This document shows positions 812-62,631 of a DNA stretch of 64,000 bases, one piece after another (position 1 is the first letter of the stretch; each line of letters starts with the position of its first letter). The stretch lies in the IMG/VR virus record IMGVR_UViG_3300036939_000014, positions 1-64,000 of that record; one strand, written 5' to 3'. The notes beneath the pieces were generated by a model. That model was given only the letters and a program-made list of their open reading frames with translations, ran no database searches and had not been told where the DNA came from. The DNA is from a virus. The position numbers and the translations under genes were made by a program.

Positions 812-829
812 ATTTTAGCTTAACGTCAA
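812..829 (-). promoter_or_regulatory. box promoter
   Basis: TTGACG-ttaagc-TAAAAT, 14 nt before ATG 798. Confidence 0.6.
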
Positions 830-847
830 TAGCTTATAGGCAAGGTC

Positions 848-1007
848 TTAAAACGGAACGTACTCTGCTTATATCTAGTTAAACACTTGTTGCTTCCGGC
901 GCTTAAAACCCATAGCCCATAAGCATTACAAGTCATTTCTGTGAGACAGCACCAGGCATACCAGTTAGTTGCCACCAGTCGCCCTCAGAATCCACTAACT
1001 CTAGCCA
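848..1007 (-). ncRNA. structured repeat element E3
   Basis: Core plus CCGGAAGCAAC...GUUCCGUUUUAA terminator-like end. Confidence 0.55.
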
Positions 1008-1119
1008 GTGCCCTCATTGTTTGGGACTTAGTGCGAGCATACAGACGGCAATGAGGCATAGACTGACTGCTGCTTGGGACTGAGCTTAAGTACCTTTAAT
1101 TGTGGGTTACTCATTGCTA

Positions 1120-1254
1120 TTTAGACGGAACCAACTGCTGTTTCTATTAGTTATACATCCTCTCGTTCCGGTGGCTCAAAGCTTTACTGCATAAGCATCA
1201 CAGGTCATTTGTGAGAGGCAACACCTCACTAGTCTGTTCCTCTGCTGCTCGCCT
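1120..1254 (-). ncRNA. structured repeat element E4
   Basis: Core plus CCGGAACGAG...GGUUCCGUCUAAA end. Confidence 0.5.
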
Positions 1255-2765: not shown

Positions 2766-3170
2766 CTAAAAGCTGTAATTATCTGGGCTGATTTGTCCCT
2801 CACTCACCATCTGGCTGAAGGCGTCAAACACTTCTCTACCTCTAGCTGCAAAGCCCTCTACCAGTGCAAACGCTTCATTAGGCATAAATCCTCGTGACTC
2901 TAACTCGCGCCTCACACACCAGCTGTTAGTGCTGTCGAAGATAGCCGTTAATTTACCTTTCTCAAATGCCAGTGTGACATACCAGTCACCATGCTTGATA
3001 GTGCGTTCACCTTGGCTATGGCTGATTAGTCTTGTGTTGAAGTAAAAGTTTAAAGCTTGGATGGCATAGCAGGGCATATAACCCTCAAACTTATACGCTG
3101 TGCCTTCTCCAAGGTCAAAAGCCTTATCTAGCATTACCTCTATAATGTCTATTGCTGTCTGTTCTATCAC
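2766..3170 (-). CDS. hypothetical protein (134 aa)
   Basis: GTG start; promoter 3201-3229; bidirectional terminator 2717-2750. Confidence 0.55.
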   Translation of the reverse strand: MIEQTAIDIIEVMLDKAFDLGEGTAYKFEGYMPCYAIQALNFYFNTRLISHSQGERTIKHGDWYVTLAFEKGKLTAIFDSTNSWCVRRELESRGFMPNEAFALVEGFAARGREVFDAFSQMVSEGQISPDNYSF

Positions 3171-3200
3171 TGTAAGAATTCTTGATTGCTCGCTGAATCC

Positions 3201-3229
3201 AGTATGATTTAGCTTTAGCTAAACGTCAA
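3201..3229 (-). promoter_or_regulatory. box promoter
   Basis: TTGACG-tttagc-TAAAGC; also TTGACG-17-CATACT. Confidence 0.6.
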
Positions 3230-3304: not shown

Positions 3305-3556
3305 ATGAAGACTTTTGAGCCAAGGTTAAGCGTAGGGCAAGTTGTAATTAATAAATGGGGAAGTAGAGGAGACGAAAAAAATGGTACAGTAATCTGTTTT
3401 GTCCCAGCAAATGTTAAAGCTTCAGATTTACATCCTGACTGTAAAGATAAGCTAAAAGGGCTTTATGATAGCTCAACAAAAGCCAGGTATCTAGTTCAGC
3501 TTGACAATGGAAACTATGCTCTACCTTACGCTGGAGCATTAGAAAAAAACAATTAG
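3305..3556 (+). CDS. hypothetical protein (83 aa)
   Basis: TTGACA-16-TATAAT promoter 3251-3280; strong terminator 3571-3617. Confidence 0.55.
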   Translation: MKTFEPRLSVGQVVINKWGSRGDEKNGTVICFVPANVKASDLHPDCKDKLKGLYDSSTKARYLVQLDNGNYALPYAGALEKNN

Positions 3557-3570: not shown

Positions 3571-3617
3571 AACAATAACCTCTAGGTTGAGCTAGCCTAG
3601 AGGTTATTGTTATTTAT
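3571..3617 (+). terminator. rho-independent terminator
   Basis: 16-bp stem AACAATAACCTCTAGG/CCTAGAGGTTATTGTT followed by ATTTAT. Confidence 0.7.
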
Positions 3618-3627
3618 ACTTACTCTT

Positions 3628-5052
3628 ATGGTTGCCACTCCTGAACAAACACGCCTCAAACTGTTAGAAGCTGAAAATGAAGCGCTAAAGCTAGACAGTC
3701 TCTTAAGGAATTTAGCGACTGGTTTGGGAAGTCTCACAGGAGACAAACGTCTGGCAAATGTTGTACAACCCCCTACGCATTTAGACCATAAAGAGATTGA
3801 CTCCTGGTTCGAGTCTAATAAGTATGCTGCTAAACTTATAACGACTCCGGTAGAATATTCTACACGCAAGTGGTGTATCTATTCTTTAACGGATGAAATA
3901 GATGATAGAGGCGAAGTGGCTCAGGCAATGCAGAAGCTGATAGACTCTGTTGCGCCAATCTTTACTGAGGCTTTAATCACTGCTCTTAAGTATGGCGGCA
4001 GTGCAATTGTGATAGGTGCCCTAGATGGCATAGAAGACCCTTCTCAGCCACTAAACAAAGACCGTCTTAAGTCCCTTAAGCTCATCCGAGTAGCAGAAGC
4101 GGGAGTATCACAAGAACTACAAGTCGCCAGATGGGGGGAAAATCCGTTAGAGGCTGATTACAATATGCCAATCATGTATCAATTTGCCTCCAATGAGACA
4201 GCGTTTGTACACCCTTCCAGGCTTATCCTGTTCAATGGTATTGATGTAGGTGCAAGACGTTCTAGAGAGCAATACAACGGTTTTGGCGCGCCATTGTTGC
4301 AACGTTGCATTGGAGAGCTTAGAGACTTTACGTCTTCGATAGACTCTATTGCTTTGGCGCTTACTGATTGGAATCGTCTGGTAGTTAAGCTCAAAGGCTT
4401 AGTTGATTTAATTGCCGCTAAGAAAAAAAAAGAAGTAGAAGAAAGACTTAGGCTGTATCAATATACGTCATCCGTAATGAGTGCGTTTGTGGGTGACCCT
4501 GAAGACCAGATAGAGTATCTTAACCGCTCATTTCAGGGTGTGCGTGAGATGCTCGAAGTATTAAAGATGGACTTAGGAGCGTGTGCAATAGAACCTCACA
4601 CTACTTTCTTCAACGAGAGTCCATCAGGCAATACATCTGGCACTGACCAGATGAGAAACATTAATAGTCAGATAGCCAACTTCCAAGAGAAGGCTATCAG
4701 AAAGCAGATTGAGTACCTAATAGACCTCTGGCATCATTGCCAAGATTCACCCACTAAAGGACAACCACCAGAGTCCTATGAACTAACATTCCCTGTAGTG
4801 TACGAACTCAATGAAATCGAACGTGCAGCGCTCGAGAAGACTCAAGCTGAACGTATGGCAATACTGCTTAAGGGTAATGGCAATGAGGGCGTAATTAATC
4901 CCCTAGAGGCTGCTGAGGCGATTGCTCGTGATGTACCACTGAGCAGTGTGATTGACTTAGATGCTCGCCAGAAGGCAGCTGCTGAGGCTGCTAAGGAACT
5001 GGCAGAATTTGAGACTGAGGGTTTTGTAGTTAAGAAGCGTGAAATAGTATGA
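3628..5052 (+). CDS. putative phage portal protein
   Basis: ATG 3628 chosen because track start 3607 lies inside the upstream terminator; 474 aa; size, acidic C-terminus and sequence character resemble DUF1073-type portals; Mu-F-like gene nearby. Confidence 0.5.
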   Translation: MVATPEQTRLKLLEAENEALKLDSLLRNLATGLGSLTGDKRLANVVQPPTHLDHKEIDSWFESNKYAAKLITTPVEYSTRKWCIYSLTDEIDDRGEVAQAMQKLIDSVAPIFTEALITALKYGGSAIVIGALDGIEDPSQPLNKDRLKSLKLIRVAEAGVSQELQVARWGENPLEADYNMPIMYQFASNETAFVHPSRLILFNGIDVGARRSREQYNGFGAPLLQRCIGELRDFTSSIDSIALALTDWNRLVVKLKGLVDLIAAKKKKEVEERLRLYQYTSSVMSAFVGDPEDQIEYLNRSFQGVREMLEVLKMDLGACAIEPHTTFFNESPSGNTSGTDQMRNINSQIANFQEKAIRKQIEYLIDLWHHCQDSPTKGQPPESYELTFPVVYELNEIERAALEKTQAERMAILLKGNGNEGVINPLEAAEAIARDVPLSSVIDLDARQKAAAEAAKELAEFETEGFVVKKREIV

Positions 5053-5545: not shown

Positions 5546-5670
5546 TTTCCTACACTAATAGCTTTCTATTCTAGTTAACAACCTGTTGCTGTAGGTTGCT
5601 GAAAGCTATACCCAGTAAGTATCACAAGTCATTTTTGAGTGAAAGCCTCCGTCAAGTCTGTTCTGCCTAG
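5546..5670 (-). ncRNA. structured repeat element E5 (CCTAC-stem variant, no U-run)
   Basis: Core recognisable; overlaps the last codons of CDS 5629-6279 on the same strand. Confidence 0.4.
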
Positions 5671-6279
5671 CTTCAGGTTCCAATCTTCATTTCCTACTAC
5701 AGCCTCAAGAGAGCCACTCATGGTCTTGTATGCACCGTCCACTTTGACAACCAAGTGACTGACTTCTCCTTCTTCACTCAACTTGAAGGTAATATTCACT
5801 CGTTGCGAACTACATACAGTTCCACCCCCCTGTGTTTGTGTCTTGTACTGCTTTTTGCAGCGTCCACAAGTCCACTTATCTTCGCTTTCTGTACTACTGC
5901 GACTTATTGCTTTTGAAGCCTTGCAGAAGGGACATCTAGGGCGATGCTTCTTGTAATATTCCTTACGCAGAGCTTTAAGCAGTTCGTACCGTTTATTTTT
6001 GTCGAGTCCTAACCTACGCTCTGCGCGTTCTAGCTGTACACTTACCTGATTGTGTGAGTTAATGCCCAACTCATTGCGAATGTCAGCATTGCTCATCGGC
6101 TCGCACCCAAAACCGTAGAACATCACAAACACTTGGCGCTGCTGTAATGACTTAATCTTAGTGTCTATGTCATCTTGAGTCAGATTGGGGTACATCTGTT
6201 CCAAGTATTTGTGACGCAATGGAAGAGGTAGCCCTCTAATTTTTTCAGGCATGGCAGCGAGCAAGTGAGGATAACTCAT
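5629..6279 (-). CDS. sigma-70 region-4-like HTH protein with zinc ribbon
   Basis: LQQRQVFVMFYGF..SNADIRNELGI..VSVQLERAERRL resembles sigma region 4; CPFC...CGRC ribbon; flanked by element copies at both ends. Confidence 0.45.
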   Translation of the reverse strand: MSYPHLLAAMPEKIRGLPLPLRHKYLEQMYPNLTQDDIDTKIKSLQQRQVFVMFYGFGCEPMSNADIRNELGINSHNQVSVQLERAERRLGLDKNKRYELLKALRKEYYKKHRPRCPFCKASKAISRSSTESEDKWTCGRCKKQYKTQTQGGGTVCSSQRVNITFKLSEEGEVSHLVVKVDGAYKTMSGSLEAVVGNEDWNLKLGRTDLTEAFTQK

Positions 6280-6325: not shown

Positions 6326-6455
6326 ATAAAAACGGAACGTTAGTGCTGTAGTTAAGTATTAGATCTTAGGCGTTCCGGTGACTGCAACATATACAGAGTA
6401 AGGCTTTGAGGTTGATTTTGAGAAAGAGCTGAATAGAGGTTAGTTGCTGTGTGGT
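6326..6455 (-). ncRNA. structured repeat element E6
   Basis: CUCAAAAUCAACCUCAAAGCCUUACU core, CCGGAACG..CGUUCCGUUUUUAU end; directly upstream of CDS 5629-6279. Confidence 0.6.
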
Positions 6456-6457
6456 TA

Positions 6458-6478
6458 GGTTGACAGTTAGGTAAAAAC
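6458..6478 (+). promoter_or_regulatory. box promoter
   Basis: TTGACA-gttagg-TAAAAA; also 17 nt to CATAGT. Confidence 0.5.
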
Positions 6479-6865
6479 AAGGCATAGTGAAGATAGAGTT
6501 AACCAATCACAAAGATGCTAGCCAATACACTAAACACTGCATTGACGACCAAAAACTTAGATCAAGTAAGTTCGCTAAGGATAGAGATAACAGCCGAGGT
6601 GCTTAATCATCTGGGCATAATCGTGTGGAATAGTTCCCAAGGATTGGGATAAGCCCGAAGGCAATCAAGCATTGTGTGTTTCATTTTGCAAAGATAACCC
6701 ATCTTTAGGGCAGTGCTTAGACATCCTCTTTACAATGCATGACGGACATCCGCAAGTGCAGATTAATGGAGTAGCACAATCTCACTGGAGGCTCAACCAA
6801 CAGCAAAGCTAGAATGACCCCATAAGTTTGCTCGCTAACCTCTCAATAATGAGAGGTTATTTTTT

Positions 6866-9780: not shown

Positions 9781-9943
9781 TGGCATAGTGTCTAGGGGCA
9801 GAAGTAGTGGGAGCAGAGGGGGGAACATACCGTGCTGATGCTCATGCTTTAAACTAACCCCTAATCCTTGCTGCATATAGTGTGTAGCTGCCGGAAGGTC
9901 TAGACTCTAGATAATAACTACAGTGTTAACGTTCCGTTTTTTT
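9781..9943 (+). ncRNA. structured repeat element E7
   Basis: Starts TGGCAT; GAGCA/TGCTC hairpin; core; CCGGAAGG..CGTTCCG plus T7 run. Confidence 0.65.
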
Positions 9944-9969: not shown

Positions 9970-9996
9970 TGGATAAGCTGTAGGAGAAGTTAACCA

Positions 9997-11234: not shown

Positions 11235-11294
11235 GATTTGGGATATCCAGGATGAGGTTAGTCACAATATAAAGCTGCTTACTGGTTGACTAGA

Positions 11295-11314
11295 CGTTGA
11301 CATTTCGCTAAAAT
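11295..11314 (+). promoter_or_regulatory. box promoter
   Basis: TTGACA-tttcgc-TAAAAT. Confidence 0.6.
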
Positions 11315-14801: not shown

Positions 14802-14819
14802 TATTGACGTTTAGCTAGG
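14802..14819 (+). promoter_or_regulatory. box promoter driving element E8
   Basis: TATTGACGTTTAGCTAGGCT; no CDS downstream on this strand before E8. Confidence 0.55.
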
Positions 14820-14826
14820 CTTCAAC

Positions 14827-15347: not shown

Positions 15348-15403
15348 TTTGCTGTAAAAACTCGACTCCTACAGTCTATTATTTTTTTACCTTAATGTCA
15401 AAT

Positions 15404-15583: not shown

Positions 15584-15651
15584 CTACCCCCCCGTTGTTC
15601 GCCTCTCAATTGTCACACACTTCCATGTCACAATACCGTATTTTAATATTG

Positions 15652-15682
15652 TTGACATTTAGCAAAACGTCAATCATGATGA
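15652..15682. promoter_or_regulatory. palindromic double box upstream of parB
   Basis: TTGACATTTAGCAAAACGTCAA reads as the box on both strands. Confidence 0.55.
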
Positions 15683-17210: not shown

Positions 17211-17572
17211 TCTAAATACCACACAGACTCAACACATCTAATAACACGTTTATGGAGCGGTTCAAAAGCTGCTCCATTTTCATTGGCATACACTACCCAC
17301 TGCTCACCTTCTACCTCATAAACCATCCCCAGATTGGCTTCGGTGCCCAGTCTGAGGCAGAGCAGGTCTCCATGCTGTATGCCAGTTTCACGACGCTTAC
17401 AGTACCGTTCCAGAAGCTCTGCAACGAGGTTAGGTGGATGACTCTCTACAGTCGGATATCGTTCATACACCCATGTGAGGTTGGGTAGTGGTGATAAGCC
17501 TAAACGTTCACGCTCTTTTATGACTATGCTAAGGCAGTCGTTTTTCTGGCGTTGGAATTTAAATATTGACAT
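17207..17572 (-). CDS. possible NlpC/P60-like tail protein (gpK-like, degenerate)
   Basis: NDCLS ... HGDLLCL ... NLGMVY pattern; lies between the L-like and J-like genes on the same strand; catalytic His not evident. Confidence 0.3.
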   Translation of the reverse strand: MSIFKFQRQKNDCLSIVIKERERLGLSPLPNLTWVYERYPTVESHPPNLVAELLERYCKRRETGIQHGDLLCLRLGTEANLGMVYEVEGEQWVVYANENGAAFEPLHKRVIRCVESVWYLD

Positions 17573-17627
17573 TTTGTTATTGATTTGTTATTTTTGCTAT
17601 GAGTCAACATTAAAGAGTTAAGTAATT

Positions 17628-17949: not shown

Positions 17950-17984
17950 AGCCAGTCTTACTCTTCGAGACTGGCTTCTTTATT
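17950..17984 (+). terminator. rho-independent terminator
   Basis: GCCAGTCT...AGACTGGC plus T-rich tail. Confidence 0.65.
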
Positions 17985-18011
17985 GATACCGTATTGACGT
18001 TTATATAAAAT
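17983..18011 (+). promoter_or_regulatory. double-box promoter
   Basis: TTGATA-17-TAAAAT with TTGACGTTTATA in the spacer. Confidence 0.65.
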
Positions 18012-18625: not shown

Positions 18626-18654
18626 TTGACACTATATTGACGTTTAGCTAATAT
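18626..18654 (+). promoter_or_regulatory. double-box promoter
   Basis: TTGACA-ctatat-TTGACG-TTTAGC-TAATAT (17-nt spacing to the upstream hexamer). Confidence 0.7.
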
Positions 18655-19779: not shown

Positions 19780-19827
19780 TGGTTTACTGAAATAACTGTA
19801 ACTACTGTAACATCTTTTATTTAATTG

Positions 19828-20853
19828 TCAATCAATAGCGCCAACTGACTTAAGGTATTCTCTGCTGTAACCTTTGGGGTAGCGCTGTTTAGCCAAGGCT
19901 GTATTGATGGCTAGCTTTTCTTCAGGGTGAATTAGCGTGAAGTTAGGATGATTCTGTTTTACGGATGCTTCGATGTCTAGGATGCGTTCATACATAGCTT
20001 TTCGGTGACTGAGCAGAACAGCACCCAAAAGTTTACCGTCTGGGCGCATAATTCGATTAGACTTCTCTCTGAAGCTTAGATAGATGGCTGCTAAATCTGT
20101 TAAAGGTGAGTATCCGGGATGTACATTAACAAACCGTTCTAGGGATTTGTCTTTTTTGATTAGAGGACAGCCTATGCAGCCTGTTCTTAAGGAATCTCCA
20201 CTATTTTGCTCACTGATGCTATAAATCATTTCAAGTCTATTAAAAGCATCTGGCAATACTTCTGATAAATCCAATACGGCTAAAGTATCCCAGACTTGAC
20301 AAGTACTAAAGTTTAACAATGGGCGGCAAAGGTGTCTAAATACTTTCTTTTTGTCTTGTTCAGTGATACCACATTCATTAGTGCTATCGCATTGCCCTTT
20401 AAGCTTTTTGTCTCTGTTGTTGCTTTCCCCTAAGCGCTCACCATTGATTCCTATATAAGCTTCTTGAGAGGCTTTTACAATCTTTTCAATGGGCTTGATT
20501 TTTAACTTATCTGTACACCATCTAAAGTTTCGATGTGGAGTAGGAACCCCTTTTCCTATTAGTTGATAAAAGAACCTTGACTCAACATCAGGGATAGCGT
20601 AGTGAAAAATAATTCCACGCTCTTTACAAAGTTTTTGGCACTCTTCGATATGAGCATCCATCATTGGTATTTCCATTAATGTGTTGGAGTGTACAACTTC
20701 CCAGTTAGAAAAACCTTCTTGAGTTGCGAGCAGGGCTAAACCAAGTAAGGCTGTACTATCTTTTCCTCCACTAAAGCTTAAGTACTTCTTGGTAGAAGCT
20801 GGAAGACCTAACAAGATGTCAATAGCTTTACTTTGATGAAAATCAAGTTGCAT
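19828..20853 (-). CDS. PAPS reductase family / PP-loop protein (DndC- or IbrA-like)
   Basis: SFSGGKDS PP-loop; FRWCTDKLKIKP; C-terminal CIGCPL; box promoter 20880-20905. Confidence 0.7.
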   Translation of the reverse strand: MQLDFHQSKAIDILLGLPASTKKYLSFSGGKDSTALLGLALLATQEGFSNWEVVHSNTLMEIPMMDAHIEECQKLCKERGIIFHYAIPDVESRFFYQLIGKGVPTPHRNFRWCTDKLKIKPIEKIVKASQEAYIGINGERLGESNNRDKKLKGQCDSTNECGITEQDKKKVFRHLCRPLLNFSTCQVWDTLAVLDLSEVLPDAFNRLEMIYSISEQNSGDSLRTGCIGCPLIKKDKSLERFVNVHPGYSPLTDLAAIYLSFREKSNRIMRPDGKLLGAVLLSHRKAMYERILDIEASVKQNHPNFTLIHPEEKLAINTALAKQRYPKGYSREYLKSVGAID

Positions 20854-20879
20854 AATCAGAAACCTGTAACTCTCTTCAG

Positions 20880-20905
20880 TCTAACCTTTTTTACGTAAAC
20901 GTCAA
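20880..20905 (-). promoter_or_regulatory. box promoter
   Basis: TTGACG-tttacg-TAAAAA upstream of the PAPS-reductase-like gene. Confidence 0.55.
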
Positions 20906-24518: not shown

Positions 24519-24547
24519 AATCTACTTATTTTTTGTCTAAATATCAA
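24519..24547 (-). promoter_or_regulatory. box promoter
   Basis: TTGATA-tttaga-CAAAAA; TTGATA-17-TAGATT. Confidence 0.5.
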
Positions 24548-24919: not shown

Positions 24920-24950
24920 AATTTATCAATTAATTATAGAAACGTCAATA
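24920..24950 (-). promoter_or_regulatory. box promoter
   Basis: TATTGACGTTTCTATAAT. Confidence 0.55.
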
Positions 24951-25362: not shown

Positions 25363-25391
25363 AGTCTACTAACTTATTGCTAAAATGTCAA
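25363..25391 (-). promoter_or_regulatory. box promoter
   Basis: TTGACA-ttttag-CAATAA; TTGACA-17-TAGACT. Confidence 0.55.
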
Positions 25392-26781: not shown

Positions 26782-26817
26782 GGCTTCATCCTCAACGTTT
26801 GCTCGCTTCCTTAATAA

Positions 26818-26835
26818 TATTGACGTTTTACCAAA
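26818..26835 (+). promoter_or_regulatory. box promoter driving element E11
   Basis: TATTGACGTTTTACCAAAAA. Confidence 0.45.
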
Positions 26836-26841
26836 AAGTCA

Positions 26842-26975
26842 AGGTTGAGCAGAAAGATAACAGACTGGAAAGATGTTCATGTGTCAAATAGACTTGTAAT
26901 ATATAGCCAGTATAGGTTACAGCTGCCAGAGCTACTGAAGTGTAGATTAAAACAAAAGCTAGTAAGTTCCGTTAA
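26842..26975 (+). ncRNA. structured repeat element E11 (divergent)
   Basis: Box promoter 26818-26835 upstream; diverged core; ends GTTCCGTTAAAA. Confidence 0.4.
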
Positions 26976-27885: not shown

Positions 27886-27903
27886 CTATACCAAAATAAC
27901 TAG

Positions 27904-27930
27904 CTTTTATGCAATCGTCAATATCGACAA
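27904..27930 (-). promoter_or_regulatory. box promoter
   Basis: TTGTCG-ata-TTGACG-attgca-TAAAAG upstream of 27885. Confidence 0.55.
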
Positions 27931-28480: not shown

Positions 28481-28509
28481 TTGACAAGCTTTTGACGTTT
28501 TGCTAAAGT
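28481..28509 (+). promoter_or_regulatory. double-box promoter
   Basis: TTGACA-17-TAAAGT with TTGACGTTTTGC in the spacer. Confidence 0.65.
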
Positions 28510-31560: not shown

Positions 31561-31589
31561 TTGACATCGTGTTGACGTTTAGTTAAAGT
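31561..31589 (+). promoter_or_regulatory. double-box promoter
   Basis: TTGACA-17-TAAAGT with TTGACGTTTAGT in the spacer. Confidence 0.65.
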
Positions 31590-32787: not shown

Positions 32788-32816
32788 TTGACATTGCTTT
32801 GACATTTAGTTAACAT
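32788..32816 (+). promoter_or_regulatory. double-box promoter
   Basis: TTGACA-17-TAACAT with TTGACATTTAGT in the spacer. Confidence 0.65.
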
Positions 32817-40575: not shown

Positions 40576-40604
40576 TTGACATTCATCTAAAGCCAAGCTA
40601 ACTT
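40576..40604 (+). promoter_or_regulatory. sigma70-like promoter
   Basis: TTGACA-17-TAACTT. Confidence 0.5.
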
Positions 40605-40934: not shown

Positions 40935-40963
40935 TTGACACTATATTGACATTTAGCTAATAT
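40935..40963 (+). promoter_or_regulatory. double-box promoter (leaderless gene)
   Basis: TTGACA-ctatat-TTGACA-TTTAGC-TAATAT; ATG 7 nt later. Confidence 0.65.
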
Positions 40964-42496: not shown

Positions 42497-42545
42497 TTTG
42501 ACATTTAGGAAATAAGCAGCTATCTTGTATTTATTGACATTGTAA
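42497..42545 (+). promoter_or_regulatory. tandem promoters
   Basis: TTGACA-tttagg-AAATAA, with TATCTT at 17 nt; second TTGACA at 42534. Confidence 0.5.
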
Positions 42546-43813: not shown

Positions 43814-43853
43814 TTGTTGTACTCCGTTGCTCGCTACATACTATCTTAGGCAG

Positions 43854-43871
43854 ATTTTACGCAATCGTCAA
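43854..43871 (-). promoter_or_regulatory. box promoter
   Basis: TTGACG-attgcg-TAAAAT. Confidence 0.6.
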
Positions 43872-47811: not shown

Positions 47812-47830
47812 TTGACATTTGGGTAAAACT
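47812..47830 (+). promoter_or_regulatory. box promoter
   Basis: TTGACA-tttggg-TAAAAC. Confidence 0.55.
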
Positions 47831-47865
47831 GGCTAGGATAGTAAGAGAAGTTAATTAAGGTGATT

Positions 47866-49180: not shown

Positions 49181-49211
49181 ACACCTCTCTCCCAAAAAAT
49201 TTAACTCAGCG

Positions 49212-49232
49212 TATTGACATTCTGCTAAAGAT
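49212..49232 (+). promoter_or_regulatory. box promoter
   Basis: TATTGACATTCTGCTAAAGA upstream of the SSB-like gene. Confidence 0.55.
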
Positions 49233-49317
49233 AGAGTTATCTTTGATTCATGGAACAAGCCACAGTCAATCAAGACGCACGGCACCATCCTGTAAACCTT
49301 TACAAAACTTCAAGCTT

Positions 49318-50094: not shown

Positions 50095-50147
50095 GCCTCT
50101 CCCCATAGTTTGACTCGCTTACAGCCTCCGAAAGGAGGCTTTTTGTT

Positions 50148-50196
50148 TTGACATTATGCTGACATTTAGTTAAGCTTGTATTATCTAAACGTCAAC
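50148..50196. promoter_or_regulatory. double-box promoter plus inverted box
   Basis: TTGACA-17-TAAGCT with CTGACATTTAGT in the spacer; inverted full box TTGACGTTTAGATAA on the minus strand at 50181-50196, just before ATG 50198. Confidence 0.6.
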
Positions 50197-51785: not shown

Positions 51786-51815
51786 CTGCCACCTTGACTA
51801 GAGGTGGCTTTTTTG
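51786..51815 (+). terminator. rho-independent terminator
   Basis: GCCACCT...AGGTGGC plus T6. Confidence 0.7.
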
Positions 51816-51844
51816 TTGACAAACTATTGACGTTTAGCTAATAT
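51816..51844 (+). promoter_or_regulatory. double-box promoter
   Basis: TTGACA-aactat-TTGACG-TTTAGC-TAATAT. Confidence 0.7.
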
Positions 51845-52485: not shown

Positions 52486-52545
52486 CCAACAGGATATTTA
52501 TTGCAAGCATACAGTAGCGGCTACTCTAAGGTTGCCGCTATTTTA

Positions 52546-52574
52546 TTGACAATGTGTTGACGTTTAGCTAAACT
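52546..52574 (+). promoter_or_regulatory. double-box promoter
   Basis: TTGACA-atgtgt-TGACG-TTTAGC-TAAACT. Confidence 0.7.
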
Positions 52575-52605
52575 GTAAGCATTCACCCTAATGGGATTTT
52601 AGACA

Positions 52606-55230: not shown

Positions 55231-55259
55231 TTGACAAATATTTGACAATTAGATAATAT
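55231..55259 (+). promoter_or_regulatory. double-box promoter
   Basis: TTGACA-aatatt-TGACA-ATTAGA-TAATAT; abuts 10-bp hairpin 55191-55230. Confidence 0.65.
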
Positions 55260-55327
55260 AAAAGGTATAGGTAATGTCGTGATGACACCCTTGGCTCAAC
55301 CTATCAGGCTATGAGCCTAAAGAAAAA

Positions 55328-56249: not shown

Positions 56250-56401
56250 CCAAAATGCAAGCGCACCCGCAGAACCATCAGTAAACAGTAGCAGGTTCTG
56301 TTTAATCTCAAAACGAACCTCGAAGCCTTACTGAATATACACTACAGCTACCGGAACGTGCAGGATATTAACTACTACAGATTAGCTCACGTTCCGTTTT
56401 A
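56250..56401 (+). ncRNA. structured repeat element E20
   Basis: CAGAACC/GGTTCTG hairpin; CTCAAAACGAACCTCGAAGCCTTACTG core; CCGGAACG..CGTTCCGTTTT. Confidence 0.65.
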
Positions 56402-56413
56402 CTCCTCTCATCC

Positions 56414-56478: not shown

Positions 56479-56907
56479 ATGGCAACTACAAGCACGGAAC
56501 GGATGCGGTTATTAAATGCTCGCCGCAAAGCTGGAATAAAGTTACCTATTTGCAAAAGGTGTTGTGCTAAATGCACATCCGCAGAAGGAATCAAACAGCA
56601 CCTATGCTCATCATGTAGGCGAGCAACGCCAGAAGGGCGTAAGAAGGCAATAGAGAATGCCTACAAGAGCATTTACCGTAGAGAGGCATTGAAAGCTCTA
56701 CAGGCTCAGCTAGAGGGCTTTGAGTGGCAGTGGCAAGAAGTAGAAGTTAGGTTGCCGAGCCACTCTCAACAGGTACTCACAGAAACTCTTAGGGGAGCAA
56801 GAACTATGGGCATTTATTCCCCTGAGCAGGGCTGGACAGATAGCATTGATGGTAGTGCCGTCAAAGTGAAGCGATGGGCTGAAATACCTAAAAGAGAGGA
56901 AAGCTAA
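56479..56907 (+). CDS. Cys-rich hypothetical protein
   Basis: ATG 56479; CKRCCAKC...CSSC; flanked by inverted element copies. Confidence 0.5.
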   Translation: MATTSTERMRLLNARRKAGIKLPICKRCCAKCTSAEGIKQHLCSSCRRATPEGRKKAIENAYKSIYRREALKALQAQLEGFEWQWQEVEVRLPSHSQQVLTETLRGARTMGIYSPEQGWTDSIDGSAVKVKRWAEIPKREES

Positions 56908-57010
56908 AACGGAACGTCTGTGAGTCAGATTAAGTAATAGACTTACTCCTCCCGTCTACTTAAACGTATATACAGCAACAGTTATAAGTCGTTTTTAACC
57001 TTAGACTGCT
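56905..57010 (-). ncRNA. structured repeat element E21
   Basis: Minus sense UUAAAAACGACUUAUAACUGUUGCUGUAUAUACG core; ACGGGA/UUCCGU stem plus UUUU; inverted relative to E20 across CDS 56479-56907. Confidence 0.5.
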
Positions 57011-57035
57011 GACCATGTAGTTATCTCCAGATTCT

Positions 57036-57269
57036 ATGAAATACCGACAAATGGCATGGCTAAAAACTCATGACACAGCTGACAACAAAGTCCTACACCT
57101 AAAAGCCGATGACGGTAAGTTCCACCCCTATTACGCGTTTTCGCACCTCAGACAGCCTGACAGTACCTTACCCGGTGCGAGCCGTGGTTATCCCACAATG
57201 CAGCACCTAATGAGGTCAGGATGGACTCTAGTGCCCTCTGAAGAGGCGAGCAAGTTACAATTGGTCTAG
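57036..57269 (+). CDS. hypothetical protein (77 aa)
   Basis: ORF after an element copy. Confidence 0.5.
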   Translation: MKYRQMAWLKTHDTADNKVLHLKADDGKFHPYYAFSHLRQPDSTLPGASRGYPTMQHLMRSGWTLVPSEEASKLQLV

Positions 57270-57322
57270 GTTAACTACCTATTGAATGATTTTTACCAGG
57301 CAGTAAGATGTCTGGTTTTTCA

Positions 57323-57351
57323 TTGACAACTTGCTGACGATTGGCTAAAAT
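57323..57351 (+). promoter_or_regulatory. double-box promoter
   Basis: TTGACA-17-TAAAAT with CTGACGATTGGC in the spacer. Confidence 0.65.
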
Positions 57352-57737: not shown

Positions 57738-57766
57738 TTGACGTTCTTCTGACGATTACCTAAAAT
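57738..57766 (+). promoter_or_regulatory. double-box promoter (duplicate of 57323-57351 including leader)
   Basis: TTGACG-17-TAAAAT with CTGACGATTACC in the spacer; shared leader AAGCAAGTNTACCACAA. Confidence 0.65.
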
Positions 57767-58184: not shown

Positions 58185-58426
58185 CACCAATCACTTTAAC
58201 GACTCAACAAAAACGAGACTATCTATATATGCCTAATCAGCGAGTCAGCTTCTTGTATGGCGAGAAGACTTATGCGGGTAGAGTTTGCGGCATGGGCACA
58301 AATTATAACGCTATCCCCTTCCTCGGTACGATGTGGATTGTCAGACTTGAGTCACCAATAGAGGGCTATTGTTACGAATGTGTTGGAGTGCCTTCGCTCC
58401 ACATGGAACCACTAGAGGGGATGTAA
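58181..58426 (+). CDS. hypothetical protein (81 aa)
   Basis: ATG 58181 overlaps upstream stop (ATGA). Confidence 0.5.
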   Translation: MTPITLTTQQKRDYLYMPNQRVSFLYGEKTYAGRVCGMGTNYNAIPFLGTMWIVRLESPIEGYCYECVGVPSLHMEPLEGM

Positions 58427-58493
58427 CGCTTGCCTCAAACTCAGAAGCGTTATACACTAGACTGCATTCACCACACCCCTTTCGATTGAACAC

Positions 58494-58530
58494 GCAAAAA
58501 AAATGGCGTGATTGGCATCACGCCATTTGT
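58494..58530. terminator. bidirectional hairpin upstream of primase gene
   Basis: A8-TGGCGTGAT...ATCACGCCA-TTTGT. Confidence 0.6.
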
Positions 58531-58557
58531 AATCCAAGAACATATTTGTTTAAATAC

Positions 58558-61500
58558 ATGACTCAATCTAACACGCCCGGTTCCCATCAGTCAAGCCCCA
58601 GCCAAGTAATGCTTGACCTAGCCGCTCATAAGGCAGCAGCAGAAGCCAGATTTACCACAATTCAACAGTCTCCACAAGAACAGCCACAGATAGACCCATT
58701 ACAGGCAGCTAGAGCTACATCGCCTCTATTGCAGTATTTAGAAGCCACCAAAGACCAAGCGTCTACGTTACAGGATGCTGATATTCAGCCAATCCCTCAG
58801 CCTATTACAAAGATTGCCTTAAGTGTCCACAACCGTGATGAGTGGAATGCCAATTTAAAGCAGGCAATTGACCAAATCAAGGCTCTGGGTTATGAAGTTG
58901 GCGACACAGTACCTATTCGCCTCATTCTTGCTAAGAATGTTTCTGAGAAGGTCAAGATAGAGAAAAAGTTAGGCAGAGCAAAGAGTTATGACCTAGAACT
59001 GAAAGCCGATGGACGCCATAAACTCACTTTTTACAAGTGGCATGAGACGGGTGCTAAAAAAGCAGATGGCTCGCCTGTACTGACTTACATAAAAGACCCC
59101 ACTCGATTTACCTATGATTGGTGGGCTGAGTTAATTAACCAGAATGCTAGGGGTTATGGAGTGTACTTACTGCCAAATAAAGGTGGGCACTTTGATAAAG
59201 ATACAACCCACTGGCAAAATGCATTCTATGAGGTGGATGACAGGTCACTCAGCCAACAGCAAGCGCTGGTAAATGACTTTACTGCTAAGACAGGGGTGAA
59301 ACCTTCTGTAGTGGTAAGAACTCGCAAGAGTCTCCACGTCTATTTCAGATTGGCAAAGTCTGAATGGCAGTTGAGCAACTGGGCAGATGAGGTACAGAAA
59401 CCTACTATTCTGGCTTTTCAATCTGACCCATCAATCATAAATAATGCCAGATTGATGAGGCTTGCAGGCTTCTATCATGTCAAATTTGAACAGCACCTAA
59501 ATGAGTTCAATTTCCTTAAGTGTGAGTTGCAAGTTTGCAAACCAGAGAGAGAATACACTAGAAAAGAATACCGTCAAGCGCTTGCAAAGTATTCCGGCGG
59601 CGAATATTCAGAGGACAAGTTAAGCCTTCTGAAGGAAATTACAACAGCAGCAACTTCTGATTATTTCCAGCTTGACTCAGACTATCAGTTGGCACCTAAG
59701 CCCCATCAGATTGTAAGGTGTCCCGATGAATTAGTTTCAGAGCTTAAACGTCGTACAAATGCCTATTTGGCAATGCTGCGAAAGGAACTGAATGCCGAGT
59801 ATGTTGACCCGATAGAAGCATGGACTAAGCCTCTAGAAGAGTTAGCTATTCACAAGAATTACAATCTCACTTTTGATGACGGTGAAGAGTCAGACGTTTT
59901 ACGCTGGGCACAATACCTCTATTGCTACAATCCTGAAGGGCGTCCGGGCTGGGTAACGGGTCAAGACCCCACAATACCTGAAGATGAGCGTGACAGTCAC
60001 TCACCCGACTCATTACACATCAACAAAGAGACGGGTCAGTTTAAGTCTCACCGCAATACTTGCACAAAAGAACTGTATCGTTCCTTAAGGGAGTTAGCGT
60101 TCAGGTCTAATCCTGAAGAAAAGACACGTTATGCTGCCAAGATGCAGCGAGCAAAGCGCAAGGAAGAGGGGCAAATTACAGCTGAGGAGTATAAAGCCAA
60201 AGGACTTAAGCCAGAGCTAACAGAAGCTGAGAAGCTTGACAATGTTATAAGCCTTGCTCAGGCGCAAGCTGCAAAAGATGCCGTCATTGAAAAAGAATTT
60301 GCAGAGTACTATGCTCGCACGGTAATCAACAAGACTAAGGTGAAGACCTATTATGATTGCAATGAGCGTTACCTGAGCGATAAGACTGTCTCACACATTC
60401 CTACCATTGAGCAGTGCAAACAGCAAGGTAAGATTCTAGCCTTAAAAGCTCCAAAGGGCACAGGTAAGAGCTATCGAATCAGAGACCTCATAAAAGATGT
60501 TCAGAAGGATTGCTGGCTTACTGTAAGTGTGACACTAAGACGAAACTTAGGCTTGGCACAATCTAATGATTGGGGTATCAAGTGGGTTGATGAAGACGGC
60601 ATGGAGTCATTTTTCCAAGGACAGTCAAACACTATGAGCTGTTGTTGGGATAGTCTTCACAAGTTCCACAAAGCAAATTACCGTGACAAGCAAATCCTAC
60701 TCATCATTGATGAAGTTGAGAGCGGACTAGACCATCTCTGCACAGCTAAGACTATTCAACGCCGTGGAAACCGAGCTGATATTCACGCTGAACTCAGAAG
60801 GATTGTAGACCACATCAGAGCGCACGGTGGCATGATTATTGCTGCTGATGCCGACCTGAGTGAGTCGTCTGTAGATTTCTTCAGAACTATCGGCAAAGAA
60901 CTGCCTGTCACAGTAATTGACAACCATTACGTTGAACAGAAAAAAACTATCCCTGTTTACCACACGAAAGATGGTGAGGTGAAAAACGCAATAAAAGCAG
61001 GCATTGAAATGAATATGCCTTTCCTTGTTGCAACAGATAGCTTACAGACAGCCAAGGTCATGCACAAGTACGCCGACAAAGAATTAAGAGCAATGGGTGC
61101 TGACGATTTAGCTGACAAGCTCTGGCTTATTGATAGCGAGACGAGTCACACAGAGGCTAACAAGGCTCGCCTCAAGGATATTAACAAGGCAATCAGAGAA
61201 GAACAGCCTATCGCTATTTTCTACACTCCCACAATTAACGTAGGTGTCTCAATAAACGTTGAGCATTTTACTGAAGGCTACGGAGTGTTTAAGGGTGCTA
61301 TCATTCCAGACCAAGCTCGCCAGATGGTAGCTCGCAACCGTCAGACAATACCTTGGACTATCTTTGCAGATAACCTTGTAGAACCCGATAAGAAGGGCAA
61401 GGACACTCTTATTACGCCTAAGCCTATCAAAGACAGGCTAATCAAAAAAGTAGAGGCGCAATCGTTTATCACTGCCAAGGTAGCCAATAAACTACTTGAA

Positions 61501-62565
61501 GAAGGGAAAGACCCTGAAGACAATATGAATGTTGCAAGGGCAACCTTAGAGCTGATGGAGAAGCTTCAAAACGATAAGCCAAGCTTTGATACGGCTGAAT
61601 TTCACCTCTTGGCAAACATCGAAGCCAGGAAGAATTTTCAATTGAAGCATTATCATAAGTGTTTTGTGGATGGGATGAAGGCTGAAGGCTGGAATGTAGT
61701 AAGCAAGAAGGGCAACAAAACAGCGTTGTGTGACGAAATTAAAGAACTCAAGCAACAAATGATGAAAGAAGAGGCTAAGGCTATTGCTGAGGCTGATGCT
61801 AGCCAGATACTTGATTATGAGCAAGCTAGACAGATTCTGTCGAACGTTGACGACAAAGAACAGCGGAACGCGGCACACAAGTTCTGTGTGGCTCACTGGA
61901 CAAAACTAGAGTTAGACAAAGTGGACGCTGCACTTGTTGAGCTTGTTAAGTTCAATCCTCGGTGGTTATCTGCGGTAAAACTCCAGTTGTACCTGCAAAA
62001 CCCAGAAATCATTGAGACTATCGATGCTTACCGTACTAATAAAATGGCAAAGCAATATGAAAAACATGGCTTTGTTACCCTTCAAGACGTACCTGGCAAG
62101 GTGGAAGAGGTCAGACAGATTCTAAACTTCGGTTTACTTAAGGTGATTGACCTGAATGATGATGAGCAGAAATTTGAGAAGAAAGATTTTGAGCCACTGC
62201 TCAAGCGACTAAAGCAATGTACTACAAGTTATCTGATTGGATGGGGAGAGAGTTGTGGAATTTCCATTCAGAGTCGAGCATTCTTGCATGACCCAATTAA
62301 ACTGCTAATTAAGCCGATGTTGGCAAAAATGGGTTACAGCATCACAAAAGCCACTAAGAATCAAAAACAGTCCTACAAGATTCCAGCAGAGGAAATCAAC
62401 TGTATCCACAGAGCCAATGTACTAGAGGCTATTCTAAAGGATTGGCGCGAAAGCCAAACGCAGCATGGCTTTCAGGTACCGACAGGAGAAGGTATAAAAC
62501 TAGAAAAGACAGAGGCAGCTGTAGGCAAAGAGCAAGTATTAGACACACAGGTTACAGCCTGTTAG
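58558..62565 (+). CDS. AEP primase-polymerase fused to P-loop helicase (replication protein)
   Basis: ATG 58558 after hairpin 58494-58530; FYEVDD (DxD), SLHVYF (sxH), then ALKAPKGTGKS (Walker A) and LLIIDEVE (Walker B); architecture resembles cyanobacterial plasmid Rep proteins. Confidence 0.6.
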   Translation: MTQSNTPGSHQSSPSQVMLDLAAHKAAAEARFTTIQQSPQEQPQIDPLQAARATSPLLQYLEATKDQASTLQDADIQPIPQPITKIALSVHNRDEWNANLKQAIDQIKALGYEVGDTVPIRLILAKNVSEKVKIEKKLGRAKSYDLELKADGRHKLTFYKWHETGAKKADGSPVLTYIKDPTRFTYDWWAELINQNARGYGVYLLPNKGGHFDKDTTHWQNAFYEVDDRSLSQQQALVNDFTAKTGVKPSVVVRTRKSLHVYFRLAKSEWQLSNWADEVQKPTILAFQSDPSIINNARLMRLAGFYHVKFEQHLNEFNFLKCELQVCKPEREYTRKEYRQALAKYSGGEYSEDKLSLLKEITTAATSDYFQLDSDYQLAPKPHQIVRCPDELVSELKRRTNAYLAMLRKELNAEYVDPIEAWTKPLEELAIHKNYNLTFDDGEESDVLRWAQYLYCYNPEGRPGWVTGQDPTIPEDERDSHSPDSLHINKETGQFKSHRNTCTKELYRSLRELAFRSNPEEKTRYAAKMQRAKRKEEGQITAEEYKAKGLKPELTEAEKLDNVISLAQAQAAKDAVIEKEFAEYYARTVINKTKVKTYYDCNERYLSDKTVSHIPTIEQCKQQGKILALKAPKGTGKSYRIRDLIKDVQKDCWLTVSVTLRRNLGLAQSNDWGIKWVDEDGMESFFQGQSNTMSCCWDSLHKFHKANYRDKQILLIIDEVESGLDHLCTAKTIQRRGNRADIHAELRRIVDHIRAHGGMIIAADADLSESSVDFFRTIGKELPVTVIDNHYVEQKKTIPVYHTKDGEVKNAIKAGIEMNMPFLVATDSLQTAKVMHKYADKELRAMGADDLADKLWLIDSETSHTEANKARLKDINKAIREEQPIAIFYTPTINVGVSINVEHFTEGYGVFKGAIIPDQARQMVARNRQTIPWTIFADNLVEPDKKGKDTLITPKPIKDRLIKKVEAQSFITAKVANKLLEEGKDPEDNMNVARATLELMEKLQNDKPSFDTAEFHLLANIEARKNFQLKHYHKCFVDGMKAEGWNVVSKKGNKTALCDEIKELKQQMMKEEAKAIAEADASQILDYEQARQILSNVDDKEQRNAAHKFCVAHWTKLELDKVDAALVELVKFNPRWLSAVKLQLYLQNPEIIETIDAYRTNKMAKQYEKHGFVTLQDVPGKVEEVRQILNFGLLKVIDLNDDEQKFEKKDFEPLLKRLKQCTTSYLIGWGESCGISIQSRAFLHDPIKLLIKPMLAKMGYSITKATKNQKQSYKIPAEEINCIHRANVLEAILKDWRESQTQHGFQVPTGEGIKLEKTEAAVGKEQVLDTQVTAC

Positions 62566-62572
62566 AGGTTTG

Positions 62573-62631
62573 TTGACACACCTAAGTTAACAGGGTTATG
62601 ATGGGTGCATCGATTTACTTAAACGTCAATG
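62573..62631. promoter_or_regulatory. promoter plus inverted box overlapping dam start
   Basis: TTGACA-17-TTATGA; inverted box CATTGACGTTTAAGTAAA on the minus strand at 62614-62631. Confidence 0.45.

Follow-up and report, generated by a model that had tools for sequence, protein, structure and literature searches.

A 17-bp box within the promoters of an uncultured tailed phage, and its possible role as the operator of a clade-specific regulator

Why should one short box, conserved over more positions than bacterial RNA polymerase needs, recur in front of nearly every gene cassette of a phage? The question is raised by positions 1 to 64,000 of the IMG/VR virus record IMGVR_UViG_3300036939_000014 (the whole stretch of 64,000 nt is called the window below), which is about half of the genome of an uncultured tailed phage, ~119 kb in all. 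An earlier note, made from the letters of the window, had described the box as TTGACR-TTTAGY-TAAnnT and had suggested that a phage-specific factor binds it. We consider it an evenly balanced judgement, made from sequence, that the 17-bp box is the asymmetric operator of one clade-specific regulator, most likely encoded by the phage, within host sigma-70-type promoters. Dispersed asymmetric operators of a global phage regulator are a known kind of element; new are the two fixed positions within promoters and the inverted position at the start site.

Copy number, consensus and promoter positions of the box

The strict pattern TTGACR-N6-TAANNT (TTGACRNNNNNNTAANNT) occurs 16 times in the window, compared with 0.46 ± 0.70 expected from 100 dinucleotide shuffles. 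When up to 3 mismatches to the 16-mer TTGACRTTTAGYTAAA were allowed, 42 matches were obtained versus 3.96 ± 2.07 expected, and 42 was reached in none of the shuffles. The curated set likewise comprises 42 boxes in the 64-kb window, in keeping with the 35 or more copies first estimated. A profile refined on the window gave ~50 sites, 46 of which are intergenic in a window with a non-coding share of only ~20%. The claim that the box always points toward the adjacent gene was overstated: a start codon on the same strand lies within 150 nt of 37 of the 50 profile sites, but two conserved boxes are inverted and two have no gene. The view of the boxes as promoters agrees with their intergenic placement and with predicted sigma-70-type −35 and −10 hexamers at the correct spacing (16–18 bp) in 36 of the 42.

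The pooling of 102 boxes from the window and its relatives gave the consensus T-T-G-A-C-R-T-T-T-A-G-n-T-A-A-A-A, which is 17 bp long and asymmetric. The information content of this profile, which is circular for the positions used in selection, falls to zero at both edges. Position 12 is variable (C in 36/102), the conserved core being TTTAG-n-TAAA, and position 17 is C in 5/102 boxes. The "perfect palindrome" TTAGCTAA, previously taken as a conserved feature, is present in only 6 boxes and includes the unconserved position 12.

The 42 curated boxes were divided into 22 of class A, 14 of class B, and six in neither class. In class A, the TTGACR of the box is the −35, a TAnnnT or CAnnnT hexamer follows 16–18 nt downstream (chance ~11%), and box positions 7–17 fall within the promoter spacer; the earlier note had already recognized boxes with a −10 of their own downstream. 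In class B, the TAAnAT of the box is the −10, which all 14 boxes thus overlap, and the box TTGAC is preceded, at a distance of exactly 11 bp, by a second TTGACA (chance ~2% per site), giving the layout TTGACA-17-TAAnAT with a spacer filled by the TTGACR-TTTAG of the box. The box TTGAC, 6 nt from TAAnnT, indeed cannot serve as the −35 of that hexamer, and the second upstream TTGACA, reported for at least 12 cases, was found for these 14. Five nt, instead of 6, separate the two TTGAC hexamers, which gives an 11-bp period (5 + 6 + 6 = 17), and the coordinates 51828 and 3251 given for two boxes should read 51827 and 3253.

The −10 lies mostly 22–34 nt from the ATG in both classes. Manual curation of the intergenic TTGAC-N18-TAnnnT matches, with a 17-nt spacer, placed a box at one of the two positions in 24 of 26 cases; essentially every sigma-70-type promoter of the phage, or nearly all of them, contains the box. 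With the inverted copies described below, the box occupies three positions relative to the polymerase hexamers, −35..−19 (class A), −24..−8 (class B), and inverted at ~+1..+17. The class A −10s (TAGACT, CATACT, TAAGCT) are weaker than those of class B (TAATAT, TAAAAT), and class A prevails in the structural half of the window and class B in the replication half. A second promoter starting from the inner TTGAC of class B was considered and rejected, as no −10 lies 16–18 nt downstream, with one weak exception.

Conservation beyond the needs of sigma-70, and the individual sites

The box was followed into nine relatives (58–94% protein identity), which keep it amid scrambled flanks. From IMG/VR, these comprise an 18-kb contig with 94% portal identity (L001) and a 121,774-bp contig sampled as L002, L025, L030, and L031; L126, L127, L128, L130, L131, and L132 were reached via helicase homologues of 58–84% identity. 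Two scans of JGI metagenome contigs for further relatives gave no match.

Sigma-70 explains the TTGAC of class A and the TAAnAT of class B, but neither the TTTAG-n-TAAA in the class A spacer nor the TTGACR-TTTAG in the class B spacer. In a non-circular test, promoters were selected on TTGACN-17-TAnnnT alone and then sorted by simple criteria; this gave 9 A-type and 12 B-type promoters in the window and 19 of each in 213 kb of relatives, versus 0 in random sequence matched for composition. In 31 class B promoters selected on the two hexamers and TGAC, the unselected positions 8–11 were T in 30/31, T in 31/31, A in 26/31, and G in 26/31, and the 5-nt linker of the same promoters was random.

Orthologous promoters keep the box at a constant distance from the start codon, with unalignable flanks. 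Upstream of gene 43595-43813, the box lies at −58, −59, −56, −60, −60, and −56 across lineages, and upstream of the helicase gene starting at 44295, it lies −54 to −60 from the ATG in 6 lineages. An alignment of the region upstream of 43595-43813 from 6 lineages, which was not anchored on the box, showed the box, the −10, and the leader as the sole conserved blocks. Class identity is also preserved between lineages, for example at 55231 (L130, L131) and at 57323 (L030, L126, L128). The inner hexamer of class B is often CTGAC, a poor −35 that is kept in four lineages (for the 57323 promoter, at L030 9411, L126 15527, and L128 17272), whereas class A boxes never carry this C. The restriction of CTGAC to class B indicates that position 1 matters only where sigma-70 reads the box and that TGAC is needed everywhere.

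The inverted boxes belong to the promoters of a helicase gene and of the Dam methylase gene, the latter promoter having no box of its own.

50178..50195, minus strand: inverted box of the helicase promoter, TTGACGTTTAGATAATAC, at ~+1 to +17, no −10 of its own
62573..62602, plus strand: box-less Dam methylase promoter, TTGACA-18-TATGAT
62612..62629, minus strand: inverted box of the Dam promoter, TTGACGTTTAAGTAAATC, between −10 and ATG, no −10 of its own

The inverted helicase box lies directly 3' of the promoter −10, in the plus-strand sequence TAAGCT-TGTAT-TATCTAAACGTCAA. In an alignment of the upstream regions of eight lineages, for which no box profile was used, the conserved blocks were the terminator, the −35, the −10, and the inverted box; the inverted box keeps a fixed distance to the −10 in all 8 lineages, and its distance to the ATG ranges from 2 to >15 nt. 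At the Dam promoter, inverted boxes occupy the same location at L030 14052(−), L126 20162(−), and L130 20906(−); the −35 TTGACR is kept in four relatives, and the −10 with the block GGGTGCATC recurs in L127 and L030 and has diverged in L126/L130. A role of the inverted helicase box as an antisense promoter was rejected, since, of the hexamers at the spacing that a −10 would need, those of 7 of the 8 lineages end in A, C, or G (by lineage, the −7 base on the box's own strand reads A, C, G, T, G, G, C, G). Conserved copies that have no −10 of their own indicate that the function of the box is independent of its being a promoter hexamer, and their position would suit a classical repressor operator.

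One lineage has changed the box as a whole. In L131, the motif reads TTGACR-wTTATG-TAGA at 6/6 sites, including the inverted helicase box, the sites having been located with a pattern that fixes only T8 and T13-A14; L127 leans to ATTAGR-TAG, with G at box position 15 in 5/11 boxes. This concerted change is confined to the box, with random neighbours, as would be expected of co-evolution with a putative lineage-specific reader. The earlier statement that conservation exceeds what sigma-70 requires holds up, and a clade-specific trans-acting factor explains it best, on four counts: the box has two promoter positions, inverted copies occur, relatives show footprints, and one lineage underwent the concerted change.

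These data also bear on an explanation that needs no extra factor, in which the box is the extended consensus of strong host-polymerase promoters, kept by selection on promoter kinetics (through the sequence or DNA shape of the spacer and a partial extended −10) together with cassette recombination, as proposed for the PeSL elements of T4-like phages. In PeSLs, each small cassette has a terminator hairpin and a stereotyped early promoter, and cassettes are swapped between conserved genes (PMC4122927). The picture fits in several respects: class A and B boxes all coincide with properly spaced −35 and −10 hexamers, ~9–10 of the 14 class B promoters directly follow a terminator hairpin with a T-run, the interval between helicase and histidine kinase has 0–4 genes depending on the lineage, the window's cassettes in it lack a tblastn match in any relative, and G11 of the class B box falls at −14, where an extended −10 has G. 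However, 17 bp that recur at two places 11 bp from each other cannot touch the polymerase in the same way at both; the inverted boxes at ~+1..+17, which are no promoters, persist in up to 8 lineages; CTGAC is retained as an inner box despite being a poor −35; and conservation ends sharply at the box edges, with random linkers and flanks unlike conversion tracts. Nor is the phage T4-like: its portal protein, of the Phage_portal_3 type, reaches no more than 27.5% identity to that of any deposited GenBank phage; the box is short and sharp-edged and not a longer homologous tract, and neither two promoter positions nor inverted copies are known for PeSLs. We regard an explanation without any extra factor as rather unlikely. 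If no factor exists, the clade shows promoter constraint by polymerase and recombination alone.

The class A promoters are listed below, each with its sequence followed by its −10 hexamer.

3201..3229, minus strand: TTGACGTTTAGCTAAAG, 17-nt spacer, CATACT; drives 2766-3170(−); box, −10, and leader kept in L001 and L002
3253..3280, plus strand: TTGACATTTAGTTAAAG, 16-nt spacer, TATAAT; upstream of 3305-3556 and the portal gene
6460..6488, plus strand: TTGACAGTTAGGTAAAA, CATAGT; orthologues in L001 and L002
9951..9979, plus strand: TTGACATTAAGTTAAAA, TAAGCT; orthologue in L001
10413..10441, plus strand: TTGACGTTTGACTAAAT, TAAACT
15373..15401, minus strand: TTGACATTAAGGTAAAA, TAGACT; drives 15072-15347(−) and probably the tail gene 11949-14762(−); orthologue at L025 3355(−)
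15646..15680, both strands: two overlapping inverted boxes forming the 22-bp palindrome TTGACATTTAGCAAAACGTCAA; divergent class A promoters with −10s CATGAT (plus) and CAATAT (minus), the plus promoter driving the ParB-like genes 15713-16619
17566..17594, plus strand: weak box, TTGACATTTTGTTATTG, TATTTT
19804..19831, minus strand: TTGACAATTAAATAAAA, TACAGT; orthologue at L025 8469(−)
20878..20905, minus strand: TTGACGTTTACGTAAAA, TAGACT; drives 19828-20853(−)
24519..24547, minus strand: degenerate box, TTGATATTTAGACAAAA, TAGATT; preceded by a terminator hairpin
24920..24948, minus strand: weak box, TTGACGTTTCTATAATT, TAAATT
25363..25391, minus strand: shifted weak box, TTGACATTTTAGCAATA, TAGACT
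26814..26842, minus strand: TTGACTTTTTGGTAAAA, TATTAT; drives 26269-26781(−); overlaps an inverted partner box at 26820-26837(+)
27893..27921, minus strand: TTGACGATTGCATAAAA, TATTTT
40576..40604, plus strand: TTGACATTCATCTAAAG, TAACTT
42498..42526, plus strand: TTGACATTTAGGAAATA, TATCTT
43843..43871, minus strand: TTGACGATTGCGTAAAA, TAAGAT, then the leader AGCGAGCAA
44240..44269, plus strand: promoter of the ResIII/DEAD helicase gene, TTGACAATTGCGTAAAA, 18-nt spacer, TAAAAT; footprint in 6 lineages
47812..47839, plus strand: TTGACATTTGGGTAAAA, TAGGAT
49214..49243, plus strand: TTGACATTCTGCTAAAG, TATCTT

The class B promoters, all on the plus strand, are given as outer −35, linker, inner box, and −10.

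11286..11314, plus strand: TTGACT-AGACG-TTGACATTTCGC-TAAAAT
17983..18011, plus strand: TTGATA-CCGTA-TTGACGTTTATA-TAAAAT; terminator hairpin and T-run directly 5'
18626..18654, plus strand: TTGACA-CTATA-TTGACGTTTAGC-TAATAT; after a terminator; orthologue at L025 5873
28481..28509, plus strand: TTGACA-AGCTT-TTGACGTTTTGC-TAAAGT; after a terminator
31561..31589, plus strand: TTGACA-TCGTG-TTGACGTTTAGT-TAAAGT; after a terminator
32788..32816, plus strand: TTGACA-TTGCT-TTGACATTTAGT-TAACAT; after a terminator
40935..40963, plus strand: TTGACA-CTATA-TTGACATTTAGC-TAATAT; orthologue at L128 913
50148..50176, plus strand: helicase promoter, class B here, TTGACA-TTATG-CTGACATTTAGT-TAAGCT; after terminator 50123-50140; −35 and −10 kept in relatives, inner box not kept
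51816..51844, plus strand: TTGACA-AACTA-TTGACGTTTAGC-TAATAT; after terminator 51788-51808
52546..52574, plus strand: TTGACA-ATGTG-TTGACGTTTAGC-TAAACT; perfect GTTTAGCTAAAC, the IncP KorA operator, at 52561-52572
55231..55259, plus strand: promoter of the Ant-like gene, TTGACA-AATAT-TTGACAATTAGA-TAATAT; stays class B in L130 and L131
56414..56442, plus strand: TTGTCA-CTCTC-TTGACATCCTGT-TAATAT; orthologues at L030 8076, L126 14561, and L128 16268
57323..57351, plus strand: TTGACA-ACTTG-CTGACGATTGGC-TAAAAT; after terminator 57295-57316; inner box begins with C
57738..57766, plus strand: TTGACG-TTCTT-CTGACGATTACC-TAAAAT

Apart from the inverted boxes given above, four boxes belong to neither class.

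812..829, minus strand: ambiguous, TTGACGTTAAGCTAAAAT; no clear partner hexamer; 44 nt upstream of 559-768(−); identical in L001
1785..1802, plus strand: ambiguous, TTGACGTTTAGTAAAAAA; back to back with the box-less promoter 1754(−); possible −10 GATATT 17 nt downstream
14804..14821, plus strand: TTGACGTTTAGCTAGGCT, 46 nt 5' of the repeat element 14850-14996; drives no gene
26820..26837, plus strand: no recognizable −10; 11 nt 5' of the ~150-nt repeat element 26831-26977; drives no gene

Two leader starts recur ~7 nt after many −10s, and both are conserved in relatives: AGCGAGCAAAC and GTAGGAGAAGTTAAC, found for example at 18662-18672, 15687-15697, 3184-3194(−), and 43822-43832(−), and at 9980-9995 and 15357-15372(−). 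The leader AGCGAGCAA upstream of 43595-43813 was found in 6 lineages.

The region from the helicase to the histidine kinase is hyperplastic (window 51869-53274, L030 3112-4959, and the equivalents in L126–L132). In the window, each of its cassettes has its own terminator and class B promoter, and none gave a tblastn match in any relative. L131 carries an IS605 OrfB/TnpB insertion near this region. In the 121.8-kb relative, one promoter (L030 3049-3088) has three tandem TTGACA hexamers with an 11-bp period, followed by ATTAGC-TAATAT.

A putative operator, its reader and the rival explanations

If the box is an operator, its regulator, at any of the three positions, would overlap the polymerase footprint and shut the promoter off. 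A repressor is predicted as the likeliest type of regulator, and repression is the most economical mode because sites at −24..−8 and +1..+17 cannot activate. One such regulator could silence or time ~40–50 transcription units together, serving either prophage-type immunity (the window encodes an Ant-like anti-repressor homologue as well as KilA-N and ParB-like proteins) or shut-off and timing in lytic growth. The reading heads would lie on TTGAC and TAAA(A), 10–11 bp apart on one helix face, with TTAG between them; such a site would suit either an asymmetric dimer or a monomer that has two domains, like the L5-type repressor (PMC9283540). As a secondary role, the shared box could plausibly serve as a short homology for the exchange of cassettes, as each hypervariable cassette has its own terminator and class B promoter.

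Should this be so, almost all transcription in the clade would depend on a single short site joined to host-type promoters, and one protein with one 17-bp site would govern some 40–50 promoters in three geometries. The box set would then be a ready-made collection of regulated promoters and a target for a new DNA-binding protein family, and the lineage-specific variants would be a natural experiment on the co-evolution of operator and reader.

Several points weigh against an operator. Sigma-70 alone accounts for the TTGAC of class A and the TAAnAT of class B, the G11 of class B fits an extended −10 as noted above, and the concerted change of the motif could in principle stem from gene conversion among promoter copies. 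A single repressor on every promoter, those of the portal and tail operons included, would oblige a lytic phage to relieve repression, and no means of relief is evident. Among ~95 window proteins, scans against Pfam, PHROGs, or NCBIfam gave no repressor-like or KorA-like match, and no cognate repressor gene of the P1 C1 or L5 gp71 type was found; a KorA, C1, or Cro-like binder was likewise sought by Pfam in 53 small open reading frames (ORFs) and by PDB sequence search with 50 small proteins, with no match. These searches cover the window, and ~45% of the genome lies outside it. A regulator of the host may instead be the binder.

Comparison with known systems places the box near, and not within, several families of operators. 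In phage P1, the C1 sites control the replicative helicase operon (ban), and several of them overlap promoter hexamers. P1 has 22 such operators, asymmetric and 17 bp long, with the consensus ATTGCTCTAATAAATTT (PMC8546580). The likeness lies in an asymmetric 17-bp site, in at least ~20 copies over a genome of ~100 kb and in many separate operons (here, 42 copies in 64 kb). The sequence differs, and nearly every promoter of the present phage has the site merged with its −35 or −10, at two strict positions; moreover, no C1-like protein appeared in the window scans, and a temperate lifestyle is a possibility here. Mycobacteriophage L5 carries >20 asymmetric 13-mers in promoters and short intergenic spaces, bound by gp71, a monomeric repressor with two DNA-binding domains (PMC9283540), and the stoperator motifs of Cluster A mycobacteriophages vary between lineages (PMC6550527). 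Shared with L5 are the tie between site orientation and direction of transcription and the lineage-specific motifs, as in the L131 variant. In contrast, stoperators lie mostly between genes and block elongation, whereas nearly all sites here overlap initiation elements; the site is 13 bp there and 17 bp here, and the host is unrelated.

The KorB operator TTTAGCSGCTAAA has the same half-site as that of KorA, and KorB is a ParB homologue. KorA is a repressor of seven promoters; at korAp, the −10 is overlapped by its operator OA, GTTTAGCTAAAC, with the core TTTAGCTAAA (PMC2680271, PMC2665229). The core of the box is identical to TTTAGCTAAA and also overlaps a −10, ...GCTAAACT, as at 52546-52574. 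However, OA is a symmetric 12-mer read by a dimer, and here the site is asymmetric owing to the additional TTGAC. One perfect KorA 12-mer (52561-52572, −10 TAAACT) and six perfect 10-mers occur in the window, with the centre and the outer C not conserved; no KorA-family repressor was matched in the Pfam screen of 53 small ORFs or the PDB search of 50. As judged from sequence, the similarity to KorA is a resemblance, not membership, and may be a coincidence.

A different role for a phage protein was proposed in the earlier note by analogy with the middle promoters of T4, whose MotA box replaces the −35, is centred near −30, and requires AsiA and MotA. According to this explanation, a phage factor such as the product of 5629-6279(−) binds the box and redirects or activates the polymerase, perhaps turning off the promoters of class B (early) and turning on those of class A. 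Both systems indeed have, in many copies, a phage-specific box that precedes a sigma-70 −10, and the weaker −10s of class A as well as the uneven distribution of the two classes over the structural and replication halves would fit. In the predicted structure of the 5629-6279 protein, residues 17–112 form a helical N-terminal domain (pLDDT 80–93) whose nearest structural neighbours are sigma region 4/LuxR-type helix-turn-helix (HTH) domains, which are not significant (best E = 0.49). The protein also has an invariant CPFC...CGRC (CxxC...CxxC) motif and homologues in at least 6 relatives, so that "sigma-4-like zinc-ribbon protein" is a fair description; no sequence family supported it in the scans. 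From a by-eye alignment, its residues at the positions with which sigma-70 reads TTGACA appear to differ. Its gene has no box promoter of its own, nothing was found that links it to the box, and the homologues that can be placed by lineage (P0022, P0023) come from standard-box lineages only, so they offer no contrast with the box variant. No MotA or AsiA family was matched by Pfam among ~93 window proteins. Box promoters retain a consensus −35 with proper spacing (16–18 bp in 36/42 boxes), so that appropriation is not needed; the box lies 6 nt from the −10 instead of being centred at −30 and has another sequence, and two of its three positions, −24..−8 and +1..+17, are those of a repressor and incompatible with activation. 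The MotA analogy thus fares poorly, and we judge activation of this kind distinctly unlikely.

Other candidate readers of the operator are present in the window. A ParB-like pair lies 3' of the palindromic double box, encoded by 15713-16075(+) and 16119-16619(+), and the ParB-like protein appears split in two ORFs; the first contains, as read by eye, the DGHRR motif characteristic of N-terminal ParB domains, and the second has a ParB HTH (Pfam 6.5e-6, PHROG 1.5e-13). The KilA-N protein 46524-47303 and the 74-amino-acid protein 32079-32303, which has an HTH-like segment (by eye), are further candidates. The Ant-like anti-repressor homologue is encoded at 55328-56200, and no integrase was seen in the window. 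The 5' leader of the Ant-like gene, 55260-55327(+), is almost invariant in L130 and L131 (GTATAGG..ATGTCG.GATGACACCCTTGGCTCA), which suggests, by analogy with the ant genes of P1 and P22, control at the RNA level.

A host global regulator whose site is exploited by the phage was also considered; the tandem 11-bp TTGAC repeats would suit a winged-helix response regulator. Such repeats occur in class B, with three in a row at L030 3049-3076, all relatives have a CHASE3 histidine kinase with no response regulator seen nearby, and no phage-encoded binder was found. However, most boxes (class A and inverted) have a single TTGAC, and box variants follow phage lineages. The strict 18-mer TTGACRTTTAGYTAAWAT, present 4 times in the window, gave 93 single matches in 596 Gb of bacterial and archaeal genomes (185,579 species), scattered over all phyla and in no species more than once. 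The possibility, allowed for at the outset, that the box is simply the consensus promoter of the host was therefore rejected for the sampled species, the phage's own host not being identified, and no prophage copy was found in the same search. A motif widespread in phages was rejected as well, since IMG/VR gave 27 single matches, with several boxes only in the 121.8-kb relative. A host regulator seems very unlikely to be the reader.

Finally, the contiguous 18-mer could be a promoter read by the phage's own RNA polymerase or by an unusual sigma factor, as it is short, is repeated ~40 times like T7-type promoters, and ~45% of the genome lies outside the window. Against this idea speak the perfect sigma-70 hexamers, the degeneracy of some box positions, and the occurrence of the box at two places in the promoter; the window protein scans gave neither an RNA polymerase nor a sigma factor, and the giant ORF to the right is tape-measure-like. 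We hold a dedicated polymerase to be extremely unlikely. Sigma-54, extracytoplasmic function, and short-spacer sigma readings were dismissed by reasoning, because their spacing is unfit.

Two bolder schemes, which we jointly regard as improbable, go further than a simple operator: either one phage protein reads the box at two positions as a genome-wide switch, or a ParB/KorB-plus-KorA-like silencing operates in the phage. In the switch version, strong class B (early) promoters would be occluded and sigma region 4 would be replaced or assisted at class A, for which a reader like 5629-6279 would fit. If true, either scheme would be a transcription programme undescribed for any phage.

Genome context and a second repeat family

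The size given for the whole genome accords with a 119,227-bp contig on which the helicase sequence is also present and with clade genome sizes of ~113–122 kb. Family scans of the window identified the portal gene (3607-5052), tail proteins (21055-24258 and 11949-14762, minus strand), two helicase genes (44295-46202, ResIII/DEAD; 50198-51763), a large primase/helicase-like protein (58369-62565), and the Dam methylase gene (62629-63483). No tRNA was found in the window. The clade is without a relative among GenBank phages: megablast of the tail-region DNA 18000-26000 against them gave no match, and the portal protein stays within the low identity given above.

To the right of the window end lies a giant ORF of 3672 amino acids with a tape-measure (TMP_3) domain (L135 12224-20855; L030 16208-24001), directly preceded by Dam, ThyX, and a dCTP-deaminase-like gene, in that order. 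This domain ruled out an N4-like virion RNA polymerase. The CHASE3-domain sensor histidine kinase (window 53389-54789(+), L030 5059-6462) is a conserved core gene of the clade and unusual for a phage; it is 83% identical in the 121.8-kb relative and adjoins the helicase in all eight lineages (also L126–L132), and no response regulator was detected near it.

A second repeat family consists of 13 copies of a ~150-nt intergenic element in the window.

~18-164, 848-994, 1120-1266, 6327-6473, and 56904-57050, minus strand: copies of the ~150-nt element
~9796-9942, 14850-14996, 26831-26977, 28250-28396, 38484-38630, 48794-48940, 49036-49182, and 56256-56402, plus strand: copies of the ~150-nt element

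Their consensus is ...AACTGACT..GTTC..TCTCAAAA..GACCTCTAA..CTTACTG..TATAG..AGCTACCGGAAC-(~35 variable nt)-ACGTTCCGTTTT. The copies avoid called genes, except for a 15-nt overlap of 56904-57050(−) with 57036-57269(+), and start with GAGCA...AAC, similar to the leader starts described above. They match no Rfam family and no tRNA; the one structure predicted is an invariant stem of 5 bp (CGGAA/TTCCG), and no covariation supports more. The element as the target of the boxes was rejected, since a box lies upstream of only 2 of the 13 copies. The element may represent a family of small RNAs, an array that binds protein, or mobile DNA. In relatives, similar ...TTCCGT / ...TACCGTCC motifs occur upstream of boxes.

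In addition, the C-terminal half of the 134-amino-acid protein encoded at 10830-11234(−) resembles the Thoeris anti-defense protein Tad1 (PDB 8kbb, E = 0.003) and phage gp184 (8y6v, E = 4e-5).

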